Shown: one piece after another, positions 17,038 through 28,144 of the stretch
Numbering within the stretch: the stretch's first letter is position 1
Layout: each line of letters begins with the position of its first letter
DNA from: Promethearchaeota archaeon
GTDB lineage: Archaea > Asgardarchaeota > Lokiarchaeia > Sigyniarchaeales > SOKP01
DNA length: 64,000 bases
Assembly (NCBI GenBank): GCA_030599585.1
Contig: JAUVNS010000004.1
Span: 96,001 to 160,000 of the forward strand
Reading direction: 5' to 3'
Translations under genes and position numbers: made by a program
The notes under the pieces: model-generated
The model's input: the letters and a program-made list of their open reading frames with translations, nothing else
Database searches by the model: none
What the model was told of the DNA's origin: nothing

Positions 17038-18159
17038 TTGATGCTTATGGTTGAAGATGGTATTGAAAGTGAAGCAATAAATAATTTAGATAAATCAGAA
17101 GAAGCAAAACAAAAATCAAGAAAGATTAATTATTTCGAAAAGCTTCTTCCGATTTGGGTGGTACTATGTATCATCATTGGTATACTTCTCTCCCAATTTA
17201 TACCCGAATTAAGTCAAGCAATAAATTCTTTGCAAATTGGAGGTATTTCTATACCAATTGGAATTTGTTTGTTTTTAATGATGTACCCTGCGATGTTAAA
17301 TCTACAAGCATCAGAATTAAAAAAACTACGCAAAAACCCAAAACCTATAGTATTAACATTAATTTCTAATTGGCTCATTGCTCCTTTTGTGGGTTTGGCG
17401 ATGATTAATATATTTCTACCTGGTACAACCGAAGATATACAACAATTAAAAGTTGCGATAATTTTACTCTCAAGTTCGCCTTGTACAGCTATGGTGTTAG
17501 TGTGGGGATGGATGGCAAAAGGTAATCAAGAACAAAATGTAGTTAATACAAGCTTAAATACGATTACTATAATCTTTTTGTACGTAGGAATGGTTTCTTT
17601 ATTAACTAGCATTCAAAATATTCTCACGCCTGGGATTGTTGTTGATCCATGGTTGTTGTTAATCTCTTTAGTATTCTTCATTGGTATTCCGTTGTTATTA
17701 GGAATTGTAAGCAAGAGATTAATTATCACTTCGAAAGGATTATCGTGGTTTAATGATAGCTATAAACCATTTGTAGGAAAAATTTCAATTGTTGCTTTAT
17801 TGACAACTTTAGTGGTTTTGTTTTCCCTAAATGGCGATGTTCTTATAAATAATCCTGATTTGCTGCTACTAATCTCAATTCCACTCTTAGTAGGTTTTGT
17901 AATAGTGGTTGCTTACAACGTTTTTATTACTAAGATTTTTAAAATGAAGTATAAAGAAGCGATTATAACAATAATTATCGGCTCATCTAGTCACTTTGAA
18001 ATTGCTATCGCAACAGCCGTCGCAATGTATGGCGTTGGGTCCATAGCGGCTTTAGGAACTACAATGGGTTTATTTTGGGAAGTACCTGTTATGCTAGCAA
18101 TGGTATATCTTGGAAAATTCCTTGGGAAACGAGGATTTTGGAAATCTAATTCAAATTAA
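17038..18159 (+). CDS. acr3: Acr3 arsenite/antimonite efflux permease
   Basis: Motifs LMMYP, NWLIAPF, PCTAMVLVW, SSHFEIAIA and EVPVM. The start may be the ATG at 17041 or 17047. Confidence 0.93.
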   Translation: MMLMVEDGIESEAINNLDKSEEAKQKSRKINYFEKLLPIWVVLCIIIGILLSQFIPELSQAINSLQIGGISIPIGICLFLMMYPAMLNLQASELKKLRKNPKPIVLTLISNWLIAPFVGLAMINIFLPGTTEDIQQLKVAIILLSSSPCTAMVLVWGWMAKGNQEQNVVNTSLNTITIIFLYVGMVSLLTSIQNILTPGIVVDPWLLLISLVFFIGIPLLLGIVSKRLIITSKGLSWFNDSYKPFVGKISIVALLTTLVVLFSLNGDVLINNPDLLLLISIPLLVGFVIVVAYNVFITKIFKMKYKEAIITIIIGSSSHFEIAIATAVAMYGVGSIAALGTTMGLFWEVPVMLAMVYLGKFLGKRGFWKSNSN

Positions 18160-18187
18160 CAAAAACATATTAAAAAACTAAATAGGA

Positions 18188-19864
18188 TTGATAATAATGG
18201 CAGTAGTGTATATGCGTAAACTCGAACAAGAACCAGATAGCTACGATTCTAAATTCACAGCACTTACAAAGGGAGTAAATTTAAGCGTTAGAGAATGGAT
18301 ACTTAATAAAACTGGTAATTCTCAATCAATTCTGGAGGTTGGATGTGGGACTGGAAGCCTCGCCTCTAAAATGGCGTTAAAAGGAAATGATGTTACTGCG
18401 ATAGATATAAATTTTCAAATGATAAATCACGCAATGCAGAATTTTCCTCCAGATTTAAAGGAAGGAACGCTCTTATACCAAACTGGATCATTTTCCAACA
18501 TGCCTGTAGAAGAAAGGTCTCAAGATTTAGTCATTAGTACGTTTATGCTTTCAGAACTTCGACCTTTTGAACAACAAATCTTCCTTAGAAATGTTTGGAA
18601 AGTATTAAAACCAAATGGAAGATTATTAATCGCAGCAGAATTTATTCCAGATGGTTTTTGGAAGCTAATCTTTAAAATAAAAAGATGGAGATATAAAAAG
18701 AAACTTAGGCGTCTTAAATTAAGGAGCACTTTTCTGCTAAAATGGTTCTTTAGATATATCGAACCAATTGGATTCAAAATCAAAGCAAAAGAAGACTGGA
18801 AACACGGAACAATTCAAGCTCTCGAACTGATAAAACATGACGATATAGAAATTAATGAACCAGGATATTATCAACCTAGCCCAAAACGATTCAAAGGGAT
18901 AATATCGCAGCTAAGAATATATCGTTGCATTTACACAGGCCAAATTGATCTCGTTCCAATCGATCCTGGTATTTACAAATCTGGTAATCCTACTGAATCT
19001 TCTCCTATAATAGTGACAGCTAATTATGAATTCACCTACATCAAAGTAATGAGAGATCTTAAAGGTATTGATGCATGGGTATTATGTGTTGATTCTAACG
19101 GAATTAATGTGTGGTGTGCTGCGAGAGGAAATGATTTTGGAAATAATCAACTAATCGAGGCTGTTGAAGCTACTGGTATTGAAAGATTAACTAATAAAAA
19201 AACATTAATTCTCCCACAATTATCTGCAGGAGGAGTAGCCACTCCAGAATTGCAGAAAAAATCTAATGATTTTTCTTTTAGAGTTGTTTATGGACCTGTT
19301 TGGTCTAAAGATTTACCCGAATATCTTGAAAAACGCCCTGCTCGAAAACCCGATAGAATGAAGCTTGCTAAATTCACTCTAAAACATCGATTTCGTGGTT
19401 TTATCACGCACACAACATTTCTATTAAGAAAGATTTTCATGTTACCTCTCATAAGTTTATTCGTTGTGTTTCTTATCCTTAACTCTCTTAATATAACGGC
19501 TAAATTATGGTGGGTTGGTGAATTATTACTCTGGATAGTTACAGCAAATTTCATCATAACTTTTACATATCCGATTGCAAATTTCACTCGTCGGTTTATT
19601 ATTAAGGGAATTTTCTTTGGGACTTTGAATGTTTTTATTTTGGGAATGTTCTCTTATTTATTTCATAATTCGATATTTTTCACACTTATGAACATTAGTT
19701 TTTTCTTTTGGATTTCATTTTTTTCAACAATGTCGTTAAGTGGGTATACAATGGCTACTAGCCCTAGTGAAATACAAGAAGAGTATCCCATTTTTAGTAT
19801 TTTAAATAAAGTTTTATTAACCATAAGTTTGATTTCATTAGTGATTGGAATCGTTTTTCTCTAA
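18188..19864 (+). CDS. Fusion of class I SAM-dependent methyltransferase, HgcA-like corrinoid-binding domain and C-terminal TM domain
   Basis: N-terminal ILEVGCGTG, AIDIN and LKPNGRL. Central PGIY..GNP...SPIIVTANY, GINVWCAARG (cap helix), LILPQL and YGPV..KDLPEYL. Four to five TM helices ending TMATSPS. Confidence 0.88.
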   Translation: MIIMAVVYMRKLEQEPDSYDSKFTALTKGVNLSVREWILNKTGNSQSILEVGCGTGSLASKMALKGNDVTAIDINFQMINHAMQNFPPDLKEGTLLYQTGSFSNMPVEERSQDLVISTFMLSELRPFEQQIFLRNVWKVLKPNGRLLIAAEFIPDGFWKLIFKIKRWRYKKKLRRLKLRSTFLLKWFFRYIEPIGFKIKAKEDWKHGTIQALELIKHDDIEINEPGYYQPSPKRFKGIISQLRIYRCIYTGQIDLVPIDPGIYKSGNPTESSPIIVTANYEFTYIKVMRDLKGIDAWVLCVDSNGINVWCAARGNDFGNNQLIEAVEATGIERLTNKKTLILPQLSAGGVATPELQKKSNDFSFRVVYGPVWSKDLPEYLEKRPARKPDRMKLAKFTLKHRFRGFITHTTFLLRKIFMLPLISLFVVFLILNSLNITAKLWWVGELLLWIVTANFIITFTYPIANFTRRFIIKGIFFGTLNVFILGMFSYLFHNSIFFTLMNISFFFWISFFSTMSLSGYTMATSPSEIQEEYPIFSILNKVLLTISLISLVIGIVFL

Positions 19865-19916
19865 TAAAAAATAATACAAAAATTAAAAAGAAATTGATAT
19901 TTAAGAGGTATGTATA

Positions 19917-20279
19917 ATGACTGAAGCAGAATTTAAAGCAAGTTTAAGTAAATTATCTATAAAGGATTTTAAAATATTTATAAATGAAAGCTTATGCAAC
20001 AAGTGTGGTTTATGTGCAGAAGTGTGTCCTTTTGGGCTTCCACAACAAACAGATTCCGGAAAATACGATATTAAAAATCATGAACTATGTACTGAATGTA
20101 GTGCTTGTAAGAGGAATTGCCCCGTAAATGCGATCATTATGAACGAAAAGAAGGGGTGCGGTTGTTTATGGAACGCTAGAGCAAACGCAAAAAATTCCAA
20201 ATCAGGAAATAAAGACATAAATAATTGTGGTTGTGGTCCAGAAAACGAAAGTGAAACAACTTCAAGTTGTTGCGGTTAA
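19917..20279 (+). CDS. HgcB-like 2[4Fe-4S] ferredoxin with a Cys-rich tail
   Basis: CNKCGLCAEVCP and CTECSACKRNCP, then GCGC, CGC and terminal SSCCG. Directly follows the HgcA-like gene. Confidence 0.85.
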   Translation: MTEAEFKASLSKLSIKDFKIFINESLCNKCGLCAEVCPFGLPQQTDSGKYDIKNHELCTECSACKRNCPVNAIIMNEKKGCGCLWNARANAKNSKSGNKDINNCGCGPENESETTSSCCG

Positions 20280-20331
20280 AATGGTATCAAATTTTACTAT
20301 AATTTTGAACTAAAAAACATTGATTTAAAAG

Positions 20332-20790
20332 GTGGAAAAAATGGAAAAAGAAGAAATAAAAATATCGGTTAACGAAAACCAAAATAGTCAAATAAGTTTA
20401 GAGGAATCATGCTGCGGAACGTCAAATTCTTGTTGTGGTTCATCAGATTCTTGTTGTGAGGGTTCAACTTCAAAGGAATCGCCTAATACTCAAGAAATTA
20501 ATTTGAAAGAGACAGCAAATGTAGATACGAATAAAATATCTGTAGATGTATATGTTCCTCTAAACGCTTGCGAATGCGTTTGGTCTCAATTTATGAACCT
20601 TGTATTTTCGGCACTTAGCCCTTACATGAAACACATAAGGTTTGAAACAAAAGACTTAGACTCTGACGAAGCTCGAAAACTTAATTTAAATGGAAATTGC
20701 GTTGTCGTTGATGGTACAAAGAAATACATTACTTCATTCGCATTAAAGAAAGATTTACCTGTACTTCTAAAGGAAAAAGGGCTATTATAA
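20332..20790 (+). CDS. Cys-Cys-rich putative metallochaperone with thioredoxin-like C-terminal domain
   Basis: SCCGTSNSCCGSSDSCC in a low-complexity N-terminus, followed by VYVPLNACECVW and CVVVDG. Confidence 0.65.
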   Translation: MEKMEKEEIKISVNENQNSQISLEESCCGTSNSCCGSSDSCCEGSTSKESPNTQEINLKETANVDTNKISVDVYVPLNACECVWSQFMNLVFSALSPYMKHIRFETKDLDSDEARKLNLNGNCVVVDGTKKYITSFALKKDLPVLLKEKGLL

Positions 20791-20833
20791 AATTAAGTTG
20801 TTTATTTTTTTCTCTATAAAAAGGTGATTTTAG

Positions 20834-21304
20834 ATTAAAAAAATTAAATTAACAATTTTTGGACCTGAAAAAGAGCTCGCAAACGGAATTGAGTACGAAG
20901 TATCTATCGAGGAAGAAGGATCGATAATTGAAGCATTGGCTGCTATAGATAGACAGCTCCTTAACAACCCCAAGCTTTCACCGTTTCCATTGTATAAAGG
21001 ACTAATTAAGAGCTATCTCCAATTAATCTGGGACCCCCAAAAAAACGCTATTTACGAAGACTGTGCAAGTAATGCCTATGGGCCGAACAAAGAGTTTATG
21101 CCTCTTCTGGATGATGTAAACTTCAACCTTTATCAGAACAGCGATATAACTCTTATAGTCCACGCCGATTGATGAGCTGATAACATGAGAGAACGCTTAG
21201 ATTACGGTTCATTTAAAAGAGTAATCATGAAAAAATATGGAAAAGACCACGAAACTTTTGCTCAATACTTCATAATAAAATTAAAAAATCAAAAGCAGGG
21301 ATGA
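20834..21304 (+). CDS. Candidate selenoprotein with a beta-grasp-like pattern, ATT start and UGA-UGA at 21170-21175
   Basis: AGGTGA RBS at 20822-20827 and ATT at 20834 extend the track ORF by 34 codons (MKKIKLTIFGPEKELANGIEYEV...). Then HAD-TGA-TGA and 42 more sense codons to TGA 21302. A SECIS-like hairpin lies at 21301-21336. The minimal CDS is 20834-21172. Confidence 0.55.
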
Positions 21305-21363
21305 TATCTTTCAATAAACTTTAGTGGAAGATTGACAACAGGATTGCCTCCTATTTGCTTTGA
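21292..21363 (+). promoter_or_regulatory. Eukaryote/Lokiarchaeota-type SECIS-like element
   Basis: AUGAU (21301-05), stem AUCUUUCA (21306-13) paired with UGGAAGAU (21325-32), AAA at 21316-18 (11 nt after AUGA) and 3' core UGAC (21333-36). Possible lower helix AAAGCAGG/UUUGCUUU. A T9 tract follows. Confidence 0.6.
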
Positions 21364-21594
21364 ATTACTATTTTTTTTTAATTACATGAATAGAAAGAAT
21401 AACTCTAAATTTATACATGATTGAATTTTTAAATGATCCTTTAGGTTTCAAATACGCTATTTTCTCAAATCTCACTCAAAACATTTAAAAATTTCTAAGG
21501 AACATTAATCCCCAATTCTCTCAATTCATGAACTCAGTCGATGTGAGAAAAAAATAAAAAAAAAATTTATTTGAAAATTTATTTATTCAGGTTT

Positions 21595-23025
21595 CTAGTC
21601 GTAAAAAATTAAACCCCAATCTGGTCTTTCTATGGGTTGCATATTCACAAGTTTACCGGAAGGTTCGGCAGTAGGCCCACCATATGGATCGCTAGGATAA
21701 ATACCCACTCCGGGAACTAATATCTTTGATCCATTAAACCACTGGAGAGCAAGAGCAGTACCATATGGCCAGCCCTCTACAATGCAGTGACTGGCATCAA
21801 AGGCTGCCCATCCAGAAGATCCTTCAAGTGGATTCGCTGTTGTAATTCCTTCTAGTGCTGTTATAACCGCATCAGTATTGAGCGACTGGGACGCGTTAAA
21901 TGCATAAGCATAAGCATATATAGCGTCGTAACTACCAGTAGAAGTATAGATTGGTGAGACACCAAATTCCGCAACATAAGCATCCCAGAAATCAAGCGTT
22001 AGTGAAGTTTTATTTGTCTGAAATATTGATTCCAAACTAATTCCATATTCAACCAATCCATTAGTATCATCCCAAAAGTCGCCATCTTGCGCTAAAACAT
22101 TAATTCCGATCGGGATACAGCCGGGTTTATAAGTACCATATGAGTTCGCAAAAGTTAATCCTGCTGAACCAGAGATTATTGGGATTACTATTTGTGTATT
22201 GGAAGCATTGACAGTAGCCCAATGAGCTGCCATTTCTACCGGAGTAACATCTTGTGGAAATGCAATATCCACTCCAGTATATGTAAGATTAAAATTTGAG
22301 TTACTTGTCAGATGGTATGCCATAAGCGCTTGAAAGCCAGCAGTCCAGCTTAGATCTTCTCTCATAAACGAAAATCGGGTTACATTATGACCAGTCCCAC
22401 CATATATAAGCGGTTGAGACATTCCCGCTGCTGAACCGATTATTAATGCTATTAACTCCATTGCTAAAGCGGTTGTGTTTATCGGGTTTATTTGGAAGAA
22501 ATATTTATATGTGTCGTAATCTGAGAGAACACTTGCGCTGAAAGCTGAGGGTGCAGCACCAGTATTTATAAAGATGATCTCACTTTCCATGAATAAGCCT
22601 CGATATGCGCCTAATGCTTCGGTTCTAAATCCTCCCGTAGCGAAATGAACTTGTTTATAATTAATCAAACGTTCTACGGCAGCAACTGCTTTTGCCGGAT
22701 CGAGAATAGGATTAGCTTCGTCTGTATTTTCGTACGTAATCCCAATATAGTATGTTTTTCCTCCTATTACTATACCACCTGCTGAGTTTATCTCATATGC
22801 GGCTAACCTTGCCCCATTAAGTTGTCCTTCACCTTGTATACGCTCTGTATCACCCGAAACTCCTATTCTTATGATCTGATCTTCAGTTATATTCGTTGGA
22901 GCACCAGGAGCATCTGCAGCAGTCCATTGATATGGAGCCACAAATATCCATACAGTAACTCCAACACCAATTCCAATTACTGCGATTAGAACAATTGCTA
23001 ATATTCTTTTAGTTAAAGATTCCAT
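21595..23025 (-). CDS. Liv-type (HAAT) ABC transporter substrate-binding protein, membrane-anchored
   Basis: N-terminal TM; GARLAAYEINSAGG, GGFRTE and YDAIY periplasmic-binding-protein motifs. Confidence 0.9.
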   Translation of the reverse strand: MESLTKRILAIVLIAVIGIGVGVTVWIFVAPYQWTAADAPGAPTNITEDQIIRIGVSGDTERIQGEGQLNGARLAAYEINSAGGIVIGGKTYYIGITYENTDEANPILDPAKAVAAVERLINYKQVHFATGGFRTEALGAYRGLFMESEIIFINTGAAPSAFSASVLSDYDTYKYFFQINPINTTALAMELIALIIGSAAGMSQPLIYGGTGHNVTRFSFMREDLSWTAGFQALMAYHLTSNSNFNLTYTGVDIAFPQDVTPVEMAAHWATVNASNTQIVIPIISGSAGLTFANSYGTYKPGCIPIGINVLAQDGDFWDDTNGLVEYGISLESIFQTNKTSLTLDFWDAYVAEFGVSPIYTSTGSYDAIYAYAYAFNASQSLNTDAVITALEGITTANPLEGSSGWAAFDASHCIVEGWPYGTALALQWFNGSKILVPGVGIYPSDPYGGPTAEPSGKLVNMQPIERPDWGLIFYD

Positions 23026-23340
23026 TTTTTAATCACTTTTTTGGATAAATTTTTGTTTATATTACTGATTCAGATAAACTTTTATTTAAAGATTTAGGAT
23101 TTTTAATACAATTTAAGATTAATATGTAGAAGCCTAAACAATTTTAATGTATTCTTTAATTGAGAAATATTAAATTCTTAATTTGATGTTAGATACTCAA
23201 ACAAAAAGCTTTTTATATTATAGAAGCGAATTATTTTTATCATAATTTAGAACTTTTCTATAATTATTAGATTTGGTAAAATTTTTTAAATTTTTAAATA
23301 TTATTTGTTAAGAATTAATTAGCAAAGGTGGTTTTTTCGT

Positions 23341-24219
23341 TTGGTTGTCGAAGAAATAATAATTTATGGAGCTGTACAAGGTTCGGTATATGCCTTACTC
23401 GCGTTGGGCTACTCTTTAGTTTATGGGGTAGGCGGTATTTTAAATTTAGCTCACGGTGCTTATTACTTAATTGCATCGTATGCTTTTTATTGGACATGGC
23501 TCATAATTGCGCCAATTTTTGGAGGGATAACTGGCTTTTTTATAGGAATGGTTATAGGCTTGATTGTTGCAGCAGTAGCAGGTGTGCTTTCGTATGTTTT
23601 ACTTATTAAACCATTGAAAGAGAATGAGATTAATGTTTTAATTGGTACTTTCGCAATCGGTTTTTTTTGTGAACAGTTAGTAATCGCTTTGTACGATCCA
23701 AAAACTCATTCAATTCCCACAATTTTTAGTGAATATGTAAATATTTTTGGGAAACAAATTCAAGTACATTGGATTATAATTATTTTCGCATCTTTGATAA
23801 TCGTAACTTTAGTTACGATTTTTATAAATAAATCCAAACTTGGGAAATCTATACGAGCTGTGTCTCAAGATCCCGAAGCTGCTACGCTTATGGGTATAAA
23901 CGCTGATAGAATTCTAATGTATACTGTTACAATATCCGCATTACTTGCGGGTTTAGCCGCCGTCCTGTATGTCCCAGTCGATATAGTCGCTCCCTATAAA
24001 GGTTGGCCTATATTAACAGGTGCGATTGCCGTAGTGATTCTCGGAGGGATGGGAAGTCTCACTGGTAGTGTAGTTGGAGCATTTATTATAGGATATGCGA
24101 GAATAGCTACTAATTTTCTTATAGATCCAGTTTATTCTAGTTTAGTTCCAATATTAGTTATCCTTGTTATACTTGTAATTAGACCTCGAGGGTTATTTGG
24201 AAAAAAAGAAATCGATTAA
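23341..24219 (+). CDS. livH: Liv-type ABC permease
   Basis: ALGYSLVYG..GILNLAHG, GKSIRAVSQD..AA.LMGIN, VILGGMGS. Confidence 0.9.
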   Translation: MVVEEIIIYGAVQGSVYALLALGYSLVYGVGGILNLAHGAYYLIASYAFYWTWLIIAPIFGGITGFFIGMVIGLIVAAVAGVLSYVLLIKPLKENEINVLIGTFAIGFFCEQLVIALYDPKTHSIPTIFSEYVNIFGKQIQVHWIIIIFASLIIVTLVTIFINKSKLGKSIRAVSQDPEAATLMGINADRILMYTVTISALLAGLAAVLYVPVDIVAPYKGWPILTGAIAVVILGGMGSLTGSVVGAFIIGYARIATNFLIDPVYSSLVPILVILVILVIRPRGLFGKKEID

Positions 24220-26090: not shown

Positions 26091-26787
26091 AATTAGAAAA
26101 GTTTATCATTATTATGAAAAAGCTAGAGCCCTTGAAGAAATAAACTTAACAATTGAGAAAGGAGCTCTTGATGCTGTAATTGGGCCTAACGGAGCAGGGA
26201 AATCAACGCTCCTCAGAGTCATTTCTGGGTTGGAAGAAATAGATAGAGGTAAAATTGTATTTCTAGGGGAGCGAATAGACGAGCTTAAGACTCATAAAAT
26301 TGCAAAGAAAGGAATAGCTCACTGCCCAGAGCGACGACGATTATTTTATGATATGACAGTTATGGAAAATATCCAAATGGGAGCGTATTCGTTAAAAGAT
26401 AAGAAAAAATTTAACGCCCTCTTAGCATTTATTTTTGAACTTTTCCCTCGCCTAGAGGAAAGAAAAAAACAAAGAGCAGGTACATTGAGTGGTGGAGAAC
26501 AGCAAATGTTAGCAATCGCTAGAGCGATTATAGCAAATCCAAAATTACTTCTTTTGGATGAACCTTCTTTAGGGTTAGCTCCTAAAATCAAGGATAAAAT
26601 ATTCGCTGCGATCGATTTAATTAAAAAGCAGGGGACCACGACTTTGTTAGTTGAACAAGATGCTGTGTTAGCTATGAATGTTGCTGAAAATATTCACTTA
26701 CTAGAGGAAGGAAAAATAGAAATGAGGGGAACAAAGGAAGAACTTGAGAAAGAACCTCGAATTAAAAAAGTATATTTAGGAATTTAA
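26074..26787 (+). CDS. livF: Liv-type ABC ATPase
   Basis: GPNGAGKST, PE.RRLF, LSGGEQQMLA, LDEPSLGLAP, LVEQ. Confidence 0.92.
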   Translation: MKILLEIRKVYHYYEKARALEEINLTIEKGALDAVIGPNGAGKSTLLRVISGLEEIDRGKIVFLGERIDELKTHKIAKKGIAHCPERRRLFYDMTVMENIQMGAYSLKDKKKFNALLAFIFELFPRLEERKKQRAGTLSGGEQQMLAIARAIIANPKLLLLDEPSLGLAPKIKDKIFAAIDLIKKQGTTTLLVEQDAVLAMNVAENIHLLEEGKIEMRGTKEELEKEPRIKKVYLGI

Positions 26788-26788
26788 G

Positions 26789-28144
26789 GTGATAAAAATG
26801 TCGGCTTCCTTAGAACAATTATTAAGAGATGCGAGAATCGATTTAGTTTTAGCGAGAATAGAAAAAGATTCTACTGTTATTGAAGAAGTTATTAGAAATG
26901 TAGAAAACGATATACGTTCTATCCGCTTTAATTCAATATTTGTTCTCGGTGAATTAGGAGAGAAATCCGGTGAAAGGGCAGTACATAAAATTACTGAATA
27001 TATAGAAGATGACGATTGGAGTATTCGTCGAGAAGTAGCAAGATCACTTGGAAAAATTGGAAAAATGGCAAGTTCTTCAACCAACGAATTATCTAAATGT
27101 TGTTCTGACGATGAAGATTCAATTAGACTTGCAGTGGTTACCTCGCTTGGCAAAATTGGTTTTGTTTCAGAAGAAGTTTTAGAAACTCTTAAAAATGCAT
27201 TGAAAGATAAAAACGAGCAAGTACGAATTGAAGCTGCAAATGCGTTAGGTTTGTTAGGCTCCGAAGCATACGAAGTAATACCTGATTTAATGAGGAGCGT
27301 TAGCGATCCAAGCTGGGCAGTAAGAACATCTTCAGCTCGAGCTATGAGTGGTATTGGTAAAGGTACAATTAAAGCAATTCCTACTTTAGTAAATGCACTT
27401 GACGATAAAGATTGGCGTGTACGATATCATATTGTTAATACTCTTAGAGAAATTGGTGAAGAATCCATTTCTCACTTAATAAATGCGCTGGATCATAAAA
27501 ATTTCGTTGTAAGAAAAGAGGCTGTAGATGCTTTAGGAGAATTAGGAATAATAACTCCAAAAGTTATTAAAAAATTGGCTTTAATGTTAAAAGATTCGAA
27601 CGAAAATGTAAGAGGAAAAGCTGCTAGTTCTCTTCGAAACTTAGGTAAAGAAACAGTCTCAGCTTTAATTGGAGCAATTAAAATCGCCAGTACGAAGATG
27701 AAAGTGGTCATAATTTCTGCGATTGGTGGGATAGGCGAAGAGGCAAAAGAAGCCATCCCCGAATTAATACACTTGTTAAATGATAACAAAGCTACTGTTC
27801 GAGTAGAAGCGGCTAGAAATTTAGGGTTAATTGGCGTAGATTCAGAAGAAGCGCGAATAGCCCTAGAAAAATCTTTACAAGATTCAAAAACTATTGTCAG
27901 ACGAGAAGTAGCTCTTTCGCTTGGAAAAATAGGTTCTATAGCAAAGAAAGCAGTTCCATCTTTGCTAATGGCATTAGAAGATAAACAGCCGGATGTTCGT
28001 TGGAGAGCTTCAGAAGCTTTAGGAAAAATTAATGTAAATACACCAGAAGTTATATCAGCCTTAAAAAATCTAATTCATGACAAATGTGATTATGTGTGCG
28101 AATCTGCCGATTTCGCAATTGACAACATCACAGAAAATATTTAA
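26789..28144 (+). CDS. HEAT/PBS-lyase repeat protein
   Basis: About 12 repeats of L.D....VR..A..ALG.IG. Confidence 0.9.
   Translation: MIKMSASLEQLLRDARIDLVLARIEKDSTVIEEVIRNVENDIRSIRFNSIFVLGELGEKSGERAVHKITEYIEDDDWSIRREVARSLGKIGKMASSSTNELSKCCSDDEDSIRLAVVTSLGKIGFVSEEVLETLKNALKDKNEQVRIEAANALGLLGSEAYEVIPDLMRSVSDPSWAVRTSSARAMSGIGKGTIKAIPTLVNALDDKDWRVRYHIVNTLREIGEESISHLINALDHKNFVVRKEAVDALGELGIITPKVIKKLALMLKDSNENVRGKAASSLRNLGKETVSALIGAIKIASTKMKVVIISAIGGIGEEAKEAIPELIHLLNDNKATVRVEAARNLGLIGVDSEEARIALEKSLQDSKTIVRREVALSLGKIGSIAKKAVPSLLMALEDKQPDVRWRASEALGKINVNTPEVISALKNLIHDKCDYVCESADFAIDNITENI

Follow-up and report, generated by a model that had tools for sequence, protein, structure and literature searches.

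The hairpin with its core at 21301–21335 of the DNA analysed here (a 64,000-nucleotide stretch of an Asgard archaeal genome, hereafter the window) is very probably a functional Lokiarchaeota-type SECIS element, located at the 3′ mRNA end of gene 20834–21304, which carries two consecutive in-frame UGA codons. Direct support for this assignment comes from the motif itself, from its conservation and covariation in orthologous loci, from its likeness to the other SECIS elements of the same genome, from its co-occurrence with in-frame UGA and from the translation of the reading frame beyond the tandem UGA.

Results

Architecture of the hairpin

The core of the element runs from AUGA through a 9-nt stem strand, an 11-nt loop (AUAAA...UAG) and a second 9-nt stem strand to GA (Table 1). 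An 8-bp helix with one G-U pair, described in an initial annotation of this DNA, was confirmed between 21306–21313 (AUCUUUCA) and 21325–21332 (UGGAAGAU), the wobble pair being U-G at 21311/21327; a U.U apposition (21305/21333) adds to these eight canonical pairs to give the '9-bp' stem. The unpaired AAA of the loop lies 11 nt past AUGA, again as described. On the 5′ side, G21299, which pairs with C21336, is followed by a 3-nt bulge (G-A-U, 21300–21302) and by G21303 and A21304. The latter two would form one half of tandem sheared G.A pairs. The AUGA and GA of the annotated quartet were thus seen at 21301–21304 and 21334–21335, and it is from this motif that we infer a k-turn geometry. The frame running through TGA TGA (21170–21175) indeed ends at the UGA of the AUGA (21302–21304), which doubles as its stop codon. 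Downstream of the element, the tract of nine U residues that had been called terminator-like was found as a T9 tract, presumably an archaeal oligo-T transcription terminator; a scan for bacterial-type terminators returned nothing.

The folding z-score of the hairpin is −1.33, an unremarkable thermodynamic stability, and the minimum free energy structure of the single sequence is an alternative pairing of −16.2 kcal/mol, compared with −9.8 kcal/mol for the SECIS/P3 model as calculated from nearest-neighbour rules that ignore k-turn contacts. As the hairpin alone is thermodynamically ordinary, the case for it is built on comparative evidence.

Table 1. Coordinates of the element, of the gene it is proposed to serve and of the upstream operon (window positions).
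Feature	Position	Strand	Basis or remark
P1 lower helix, 5′ strand (AAAGCA)	21292–21297	+	pairs with 21356–21361
k-turn, 5′ strand (putative)	21299–21304	+	AUGA = 21301–21304; invariant, 59/59
SECIS stem, 5′ strand (U + AUCUUUCA)	21305–21313	+	pairs with 21325–21333
Apical loop (AUAAACUUUAG), 11 nt, A-rich start, terminal AG	21314–21324	+	AAA at 21316–21318
SECIS stem, 3′ strand (UGGAAGAU + U)	21325–21333	+	alignment A2 and covariation
k-turn quartet GA (putative) + C21336	21334–21336	+	GA in 53/59, AA in 6/59 orthologues
P3 hairpin (AGGA-UUGCC-UCCU), directly 3′ of the k-turn	21340–21352	+	96.5% paired across orthologues
P1 lower helix, 3′ strand (UGCUUU)	21356–21361	+	pairs with 21292–21297
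T9 tract	21371–21379	+	sequence
Predicted selenoprotein gene served by the element	20834–21304	+	translation; frame conservation in orthologues
Tandem UGA-UGA, probably read as Sec-Sec	21170–21175	+	TGA TGA in 59/59
ACR3	within 17038–20790	+	operon upstream of the gene
CpaM-methyltransferase fused to HgcA-like corrinoid protein	within 17038–20790	+	NF043040 and NF043039/NF040863, below cut-offs
HgcB-like ferredoxin	within 17038–20790	+	operon upstream of the gene
Cys-rich 152-aa protein	within 17038–20790	+	operon upstream of the gene

Likeness to the SECIS elements of the same genome

A simple motif scan of the whole genome gave 21 matches, as against five in the reversed genome. Eleven of the 21 have 8/8 pairs, and seven of these eleven directly follow the genes for VhuD (four genes), HdrA, VhuU and a UxxU PrxL, each of them with an in-frame UGA. 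Covariance model R1 (alignment A4) was trained on these seven SECIS elements only. Its best match in the 64-kb window, with filters off, is 21298–21339 (31.8 bits, E 1.2e-4), the training members themselves scoring 43–54 bits. The second-best match in the window (26747–26796, 20.2 bits) is without AUGA and was taken as noise, so that the hairpin stands far above background when measured against the SECIS elements of its lineage. In the genome-wide search R1 also found the SECIS of a second PrxL (UxxC), which is outside the training set, at 38 bits.

Conservation and covariation in orthologous loci

Scanning of species-representative genomes led to 63 loci, and 59 full-length sequences (58 fetched loci and the window) were compared. 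The element was found in all 59 of these orthologous Asgard loci, each of which also keeps the tandem UGA; no case of hairpin loss was seen among them. Each has AUGA and a 9-nt stem strand on either side of the loop; the loop is 11 nt long in 56/59, its first five nucleotides are AAAAA in 33 and AUAAA in 15 sequences, and its last three are UAG in 54/59.

On alignment A2, the structure composed of the stem, a 3-bp C-stem and P3 has 93% of its cells paired, and double compensatory changes occur in 11 of the 17 pairs. None of 500 shuffles reached the observed values, a control that ignores phylogeny, and sliding the partners by one to three columns lowered pairing to 39–57%. Within the stem, double compensatory changes were found in five of nine pairs: for instance, pair 19/45 is UA in 35, CG in 16 and UG in 7 sequences, and pair 24/39 is CG in 50 and UA in 8. 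Pair 10/51 is present as UA (44), GC (4), GU (2), AU (1) and CG (1), and columns 11/50, which correspond to G21299-C21336, hold GC in 56 and AU in 2 sequences. The first stem pair is variable (U.U in 22, A-U in 20, G.U in 6) and is followed by eight Watson-Crick pairs and the A-rich loop. The 3-nt bulge reads R-A-U across the orthologues.

The flanks of the stem are conserved to different degrees. P3 starts three to four nucleotides past the GA and shows double changes in three of its five pairs; both the stem and P3 were predicted de novo by RNAalifold. The C-stem is UUG/CAA in most orthologues, whereas the window has only G21299-C21336 and, instead, the outer helix P1. The possible lower helix of the initial annotation is thus borne out in part: AAAGCA/UGCUUU is real in the window and is kept in its nearest relatives (L010, L011, L012, L013, L014 and L016), but over all orthologues the duplex energies of cognate and non-cognate flanks differed only marginally (p=0.056), and we claim P1 for the subclade of the window alone.

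AUGA follows the first UGA at a distance of 120–135 nt, and of exactly 131 nt in 35/59 loci. While this spacing is near-constant, the position of the stop codon with respect to AUGA varies between −1 and +28 nt.

Class membership

Lokiarchaeota SECIS elements (lokiSECIS) are defined by AUGA, a 9-bp stem, an 11-nt loop with five A-rich first nucleotides, and GA or AA (PMC4989117); the last nucleotide of the loop is G, usually preceded by A (PMC4989117), and both the GA and the AA variants are known (PMC4989117, PMC11227280). Judged by its sequence, the element at 21301–21335 carries every one of these features, and it is placed as lokiSECIS are, shortly after the end of a coding sequence that has an in-frame UGA. 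It lacks a eukaryotic Rfam match and the euryarchaeal GAA_A bulge, and for these reasons together we regard it as an RNA of a known class. The description as eukaryote-type therefore needs to be narrowed: the element is eukaryote-like, but of the Lokiarchaeota type with its 9-bp stem and 11-nt loop, and the shortness of the apical loop relative to typical eukaryotic elements, remarked on earlier, is the very geometry that defines lokiSECIS (PMC4989117). A permissive Rfam scan of 19000–24000 returned neither a SECIS nor any other relevant family at E<=10, which is consistent with the observation that lokiSECIS are missed by standard SECIS tools (PMC4989117).

With lokiSECIS and the type I eukaryotic SECIS-like elements (PMC4989117, PMC11227280) the hairpin shares stem, loop, AUGA and GA/AA. 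As in lokiSECIS, it also lies within about 30 nt of the end of the coding sequence, the UGA stop codon beside or inside the SECIS is left unrecoded, and two or more UGAs depend on a single element, with the difference that the UGAs are adjacent here. P3 and the 3-bp C-stem are conserved in the family studied here, and we saw neither of them described in the main text of the two reports (PMC4989117, PMC11227280).

Compared with the eukaryotic SECIS (RF00031), the AUGA...GA quartet, the unpaired adenines of the loop, the site in the 3′ UTR and the action on a distant upstream UGA are the same. In contrast, the upper stem has 9 bp instead of approx. 12–15, and there is no long helix I. For Asgard archaea, no SBP2 has been described (PMC4989117, PMC9723677). 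The euryarchaeal SECIS of Methanococcales and Methanopyrus occupies the same 3′-UTR position in archaeal selenoprotein mRNAs, and methanococcal VhuD and HdrA elements also have AUGA_GA (PMC4989117). However, the stem described here is AU-rich, the GC-rich 10-bp and 3-bp stems are missing, and no GAA_A asymmetric bulge was found by inspection of 21290–21365. Box C/D and Kt-7 kink-turns, the ligands of L7Ae, resemble the element in the 3-nt bulge, the tandem sheared G.A pairs, the U.U next to them and the G-C closing the C-stem. Unlike box C/D RNAs, the element has no pair of C box (RUGAUGA) and D box (CUGA) and no guide region, and it sits in the 3′ end of an mRNA; the Rfam scan of 19000–24000 gave no snoRNA family at its position.

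A single SECIS for several UGAs is known from SelL, SelenoP and archaeal VhuD (cited in PMC4989117), which likewise have one 3′ element and more than one Sec codon in the same mRNA. The Sec residues of the archaeal precedents VhuD and UxxU PrxL are spaced, whereas they would be directly adjacent here. The NCBIfam 'ArsM_..._UU' models were considered as a precedent for adjacent Sec-Sec and set aside: their motifs are UxxG/CxxU, and the UU of the name stands for two Sec residues and not for an adjacent pair (PMC13188914).

The gene and its tandem UGA

Gene 20834–21304 reads ...DITLIVHAD-UGA-UGA-ADNMRERLDYGSFKRVIMKKYGKDHETFAQYF..., with ADNMRERL... following the UGAs. The extension past the tandem UGA comprises 42 codons in the window, where it contains LDYGSFK and YGKDHETFAQYF, and 32–42 codons across the orthologues. 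In 59/59 orthologues the reading frame is retained together with its two TGAs and the extension (...VHAD-UGA-UGA-AD...), with the consensus AD(V/N)MKERLDYGTFKRIIMKKYGKxHETFAHYF for the extension. Directly behind the UGAs, A115 is invariant and D116 nearly so, and M118 is nearly invariant. The tandem codons themselves are always TGA TGA and never TAA, TAG or Cys codons, whereas the true terminal stops vary (TAA in 46, TGA in 12, TAG in 1). Entropy by codon position over the 31 codons past the UGAs is 0.48/0.40/0.94, compared with 0.48/0.28/1.19 upstream; variation in the extension peaks at the third position, and the other two frames are closed by stops in 59/59.

In databases, most homologues appear as hypothetical proteins of 118 aa with HAD at their end. 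Some ten gene calls from metagenomes read 'WW' at the tandem codons and run on, exposing the conserved extension; these calls, on short contigs, are artefacts of gene callers using code 4. Among 400 genomes of the phylum examined, the gene was found in 132, including 116 of the 134 genomes of the family to which the window belongs, and at least two in-frame TGAs are present in every one among the matches listed from these 132 genomes. Some genomes have two to five paralogues, and some copies contain three in-frame TGAs (e.g. G151:C119:3214-3651 and G157:C182:916-1341).

At its 5′ end, the gene has no ATG, GTG or TTG before the conserved N-terminus; an in-frame TAG (20831–20833) is followed by ATT at 20834, and the SD sequence GGTGAT (20824–20829) precedes this ATT. 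Going by this arrangement, translation probably starts at the non-canonical AUU of 20834, or the sequence contains an error.

Fold and distant homologues

Searches of Pfam, NCBIfam and PDB sequences with the protein gave no match. The AF2 model (pLDDT 89, pTM 0.86) predicts that the N-terminal 110 residues adopt a beta-grasp fold resembling SAMP1, Urm1 and MoaD, with the helices of the extension packed on this domain at pLDDT 94–96. Foldseek returned beta-grasp matches only (E ~1e-3, TM to target 0.64–0.66). The sulfur carriers MoaD, ThiS, SAMP and Urm1 are similar in fold; the protein described here differs from them in lacking a terminal GG, in place of which it has HAD-UU and the helical extension.

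Searching 1.84 billion representatives yielded only 34 members of the family. Distant members carry 'PDAGC', the Cys of which aligns with the first Sec (U113), as do those of 'SAGC-ITEF' and 'DATC-VSF' in other distant homologues (20–28% identity, register +/- one residue). Some of these are Cys-only single polypeptides (GC-ITEF, TC-VSF). Among the close orthologues (59 loci), no Cys form was found. L090 (24% identity) keeps 'DSGC-UGA-UGA' and has its own, sequence-divergent SECIS right after the stop (21.3 bits), consisting of AUGA, CCCUAUUGA, a 10-nt loop, UUGAUAGGC and GA and equipped with its own P1 (CAAGAACC/GGUUCUUG) and P3. The Cys-only homologues L091 and L092 have no SECIS above noise in the downstream coding strand; in L092, the next gene begins 5 nt past the stop. 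The GC-rich metagenomic homologue L089 (L089:62-650) reads '...WPDAGC-UGA-UGA-NKAGK...', followed by a protein-like extension, and no loki-type SECIS was found with it. It may be a bacterial member of the family with its SECIS inside the coding sequence.

Sec machinery and genomic context

The assembly (4.85 Mb, 32.6% GC, 100% complete, 8.9% contamination; the window is from contig C40) encodes a SepSecS that exceeds the curated cut-off, two SelD genes, both containing a single in-frame TGA, an EFsec-like gene (C28:12078-12959, 232 bits) and a PSTK-like gene (155 bits). A tRNA-Sec was not located in the MAG with Rfam RF01852 or with ARAGORN under default and relaxed settings. The best RF01852 match (C3:23499-23582) is a tRNA-Leu and was rejected, and relaxed ARAGORN gave 115 mostly spurious calls; the four intron-less candidates among them that looked plausible were not confirmed by Rfam.

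Many other Asgard MAGs show synteny with the locus, and the named homologues are from Promethearchaeota, Asgard archaea of the Lokiarchaeia type. Upstream of the gene and on the same strand lies an arsenic-resistance operon of four genes, ACR3 and a Cys-rich protein among them (Table 1). ACR3 accompanies 44 of the 59 related loci, 47 have the Cys-rich protein and 12–14 the HgcA/HgcB pair; ACR3 and the Cys-rich protein are thus the conserved neighbours of the Sec-Sec gene. With such surroundings, a role of the Sec-Sec pair in the handling of metalloids is plausible.

Discussion

The model that we propose leads from this evidence to a k-turn geometry, a binding partner and the actual incorporation of Sec. 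The element would fold into a k-turn of standard layout, in which a 3-nt bulge and a U.U apposition accompany the tandem sheared G.A/A.G pairs that AUGA and GA contribute, capped by the 8-bp Watson-Crick stem and the 11-nt A-rich loop ending in AG, and flanked by a short lower stem and the second small hairpin P3. While ribosomes are positioned at the adjacent UGAs 128–131 nt upstream, the folded element would recruit or activate the Sec-specific elongation factor carrying Sec-tRNA(Sec), either directly or via a putative k-turn-binding protein. Both UGAs would then be read as selenocysteine, yielding ...HAD-Sec-Sec-AD..., and the final UGA inside the AUGA core would act as a stop, being too close for recoding. 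That a stop UGA can be too near to the SECIS for recoding has been argued for other Loki genes (PMC4989117).

A different account of the locus takes the tandem UGA as a true double stop, followed by a separate small protein from ATG 21185 ('MRERLDYG...'), with the hairpin as a 3′-UTR k-turn that does something else, for instance bind L7Ae or act in mRNA stability or termination. The near-invariant Met three codons past the UGAs (M118), the annotated end of most homologues at HAD, after 118 aa, and the T9 tract behind the element would fit this account. It fails to explain why both codons are TGA in 59/59 loci and among the matches listed from 132 genomes when genuine stops are mostly TAA, and why the invariant A115 and nearly invariant D116 stand right after the UGAs. 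Moreover, the Cys-containing distant homologues are single polypeptides across the junction, AF2 packs the extension onto the beta-grasp domain with high confidence, and all those 8/8-paired matches of the genome that have an identifiable upstream gene follow genes with in-frame UGA (VhuD x4, HdrA, VhuU, PrxL). We consider a double stop very unlikely.

Still less probable, in our estimation, is a mechanism other than Sec insertion, in which the hairpin promotes the reading of UGA by near-cognate Trp, Cys or Arg tRNA. The missing tRNA-Sec of the assembly and the Trp assigned to these codons by some gene callers speak for such a mechanism; the latter, however, stems from the use of code 4. Against it, the genome has SepSecS, SelD with its own in-frame UGA and genes resembling EFsec and PSTK, the same element follows its canonical selenoprotein genes, UGA doubles as an ordinary stop, and the alignment of the first UGA with Cys in distant homologues is a classic Sec/Cys signature. 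A chance AT-rich hairpin devoid of function might be suspected from the z-score and from the five matches of the loose motif scan in the reversed genome. This last reading has next to no probability left and was discarded, given the double compensatory changes over 59 loci, the retention of unpaired AUGA, AAA, UAG and GA in most of them and the E-value of the lineage model. A functional SECIS acting on both UGAs remains the preferred explanation.

The gene family is not among the seven Asgard selenoprotein families of a 2024 survey (SelD, FrhA/VhuU, HdrA, FrhD/VhuD, Prx-like, AhpF-N-like and DsbA-like; PMC11227280), nor among the eleven archaeal families of a 2026 review (PMC13188914); two further Asgard papers name no selenoproteins but HdrA, Prx, MvhD, SPS and VhuU. 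The published selenoproteomes of Asgard archaea relied on similarity to families already known and on Sec/Cys pairs, and methods of the latter kind would miss this family because its close orthologues are without a Cys form. Here, the SECIS was the handle that revealed the family, which suggests that SECIS-first searches would enlarge the archaeal selenoproteome. Taken as a whole, a broader proposition has, in our view, about even chances of being correct: that the hairpin marks a widespread and previously unlisted Asgard selenoprotein family (beta-grasp, adjacent Sec-Sec, metalloid operons of the ACR3/HgcAB-like kind, present in most genomes of the family of the window), that a single loki-type element serves the decoding of two UGAs in a row, and that the elements are three-part units in which P3 could dock an archaeal SECIS-binding factor. 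Two adjacent UGAs and one short SECIS at a near-constant distance of 131 nt would offer a compact natural system for studying processive Sec insertion, in a lineage thought to bridge the archaeal and the eukaryotic Sec machinery. The position of a predicted vicinal diselenol beside an arsenite pump and a methylation module of the HgcA-like kind points to a possible handling of arsenic or mercury by selenium chemistry.

A further trait is common to most of the SECIS elements in this genome: a lower stem of 5–8 bp encloses the k-turn hairpin and, 3′ of the GA, a short hairpin rich in GC. Loci with this three-way fold are C20:52503, C20:389154, C24:250883(-), C26:75979(-), C34:226786, C26:252454 and C26:110508. 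No ORF containing UGA is evident upstream of one loki-type SECIS-like element with P1 and P3 (C26:252451-252493, plus strand, 35.4 bits). A loki-type SECIS directly follows each of two tiny ORFs with in-frame UGA, both on the plus strand and predicted to encode membrane proteins: C34:226574-226824 ('...EETGGGUPSTC...'; R1 41.3 bits) and C21:176537-176796 ('...NSFSAUGSRMSYY...'; R1 27.9 bits). From their sequences, these two are possible further selenoproteins outside the published lists.
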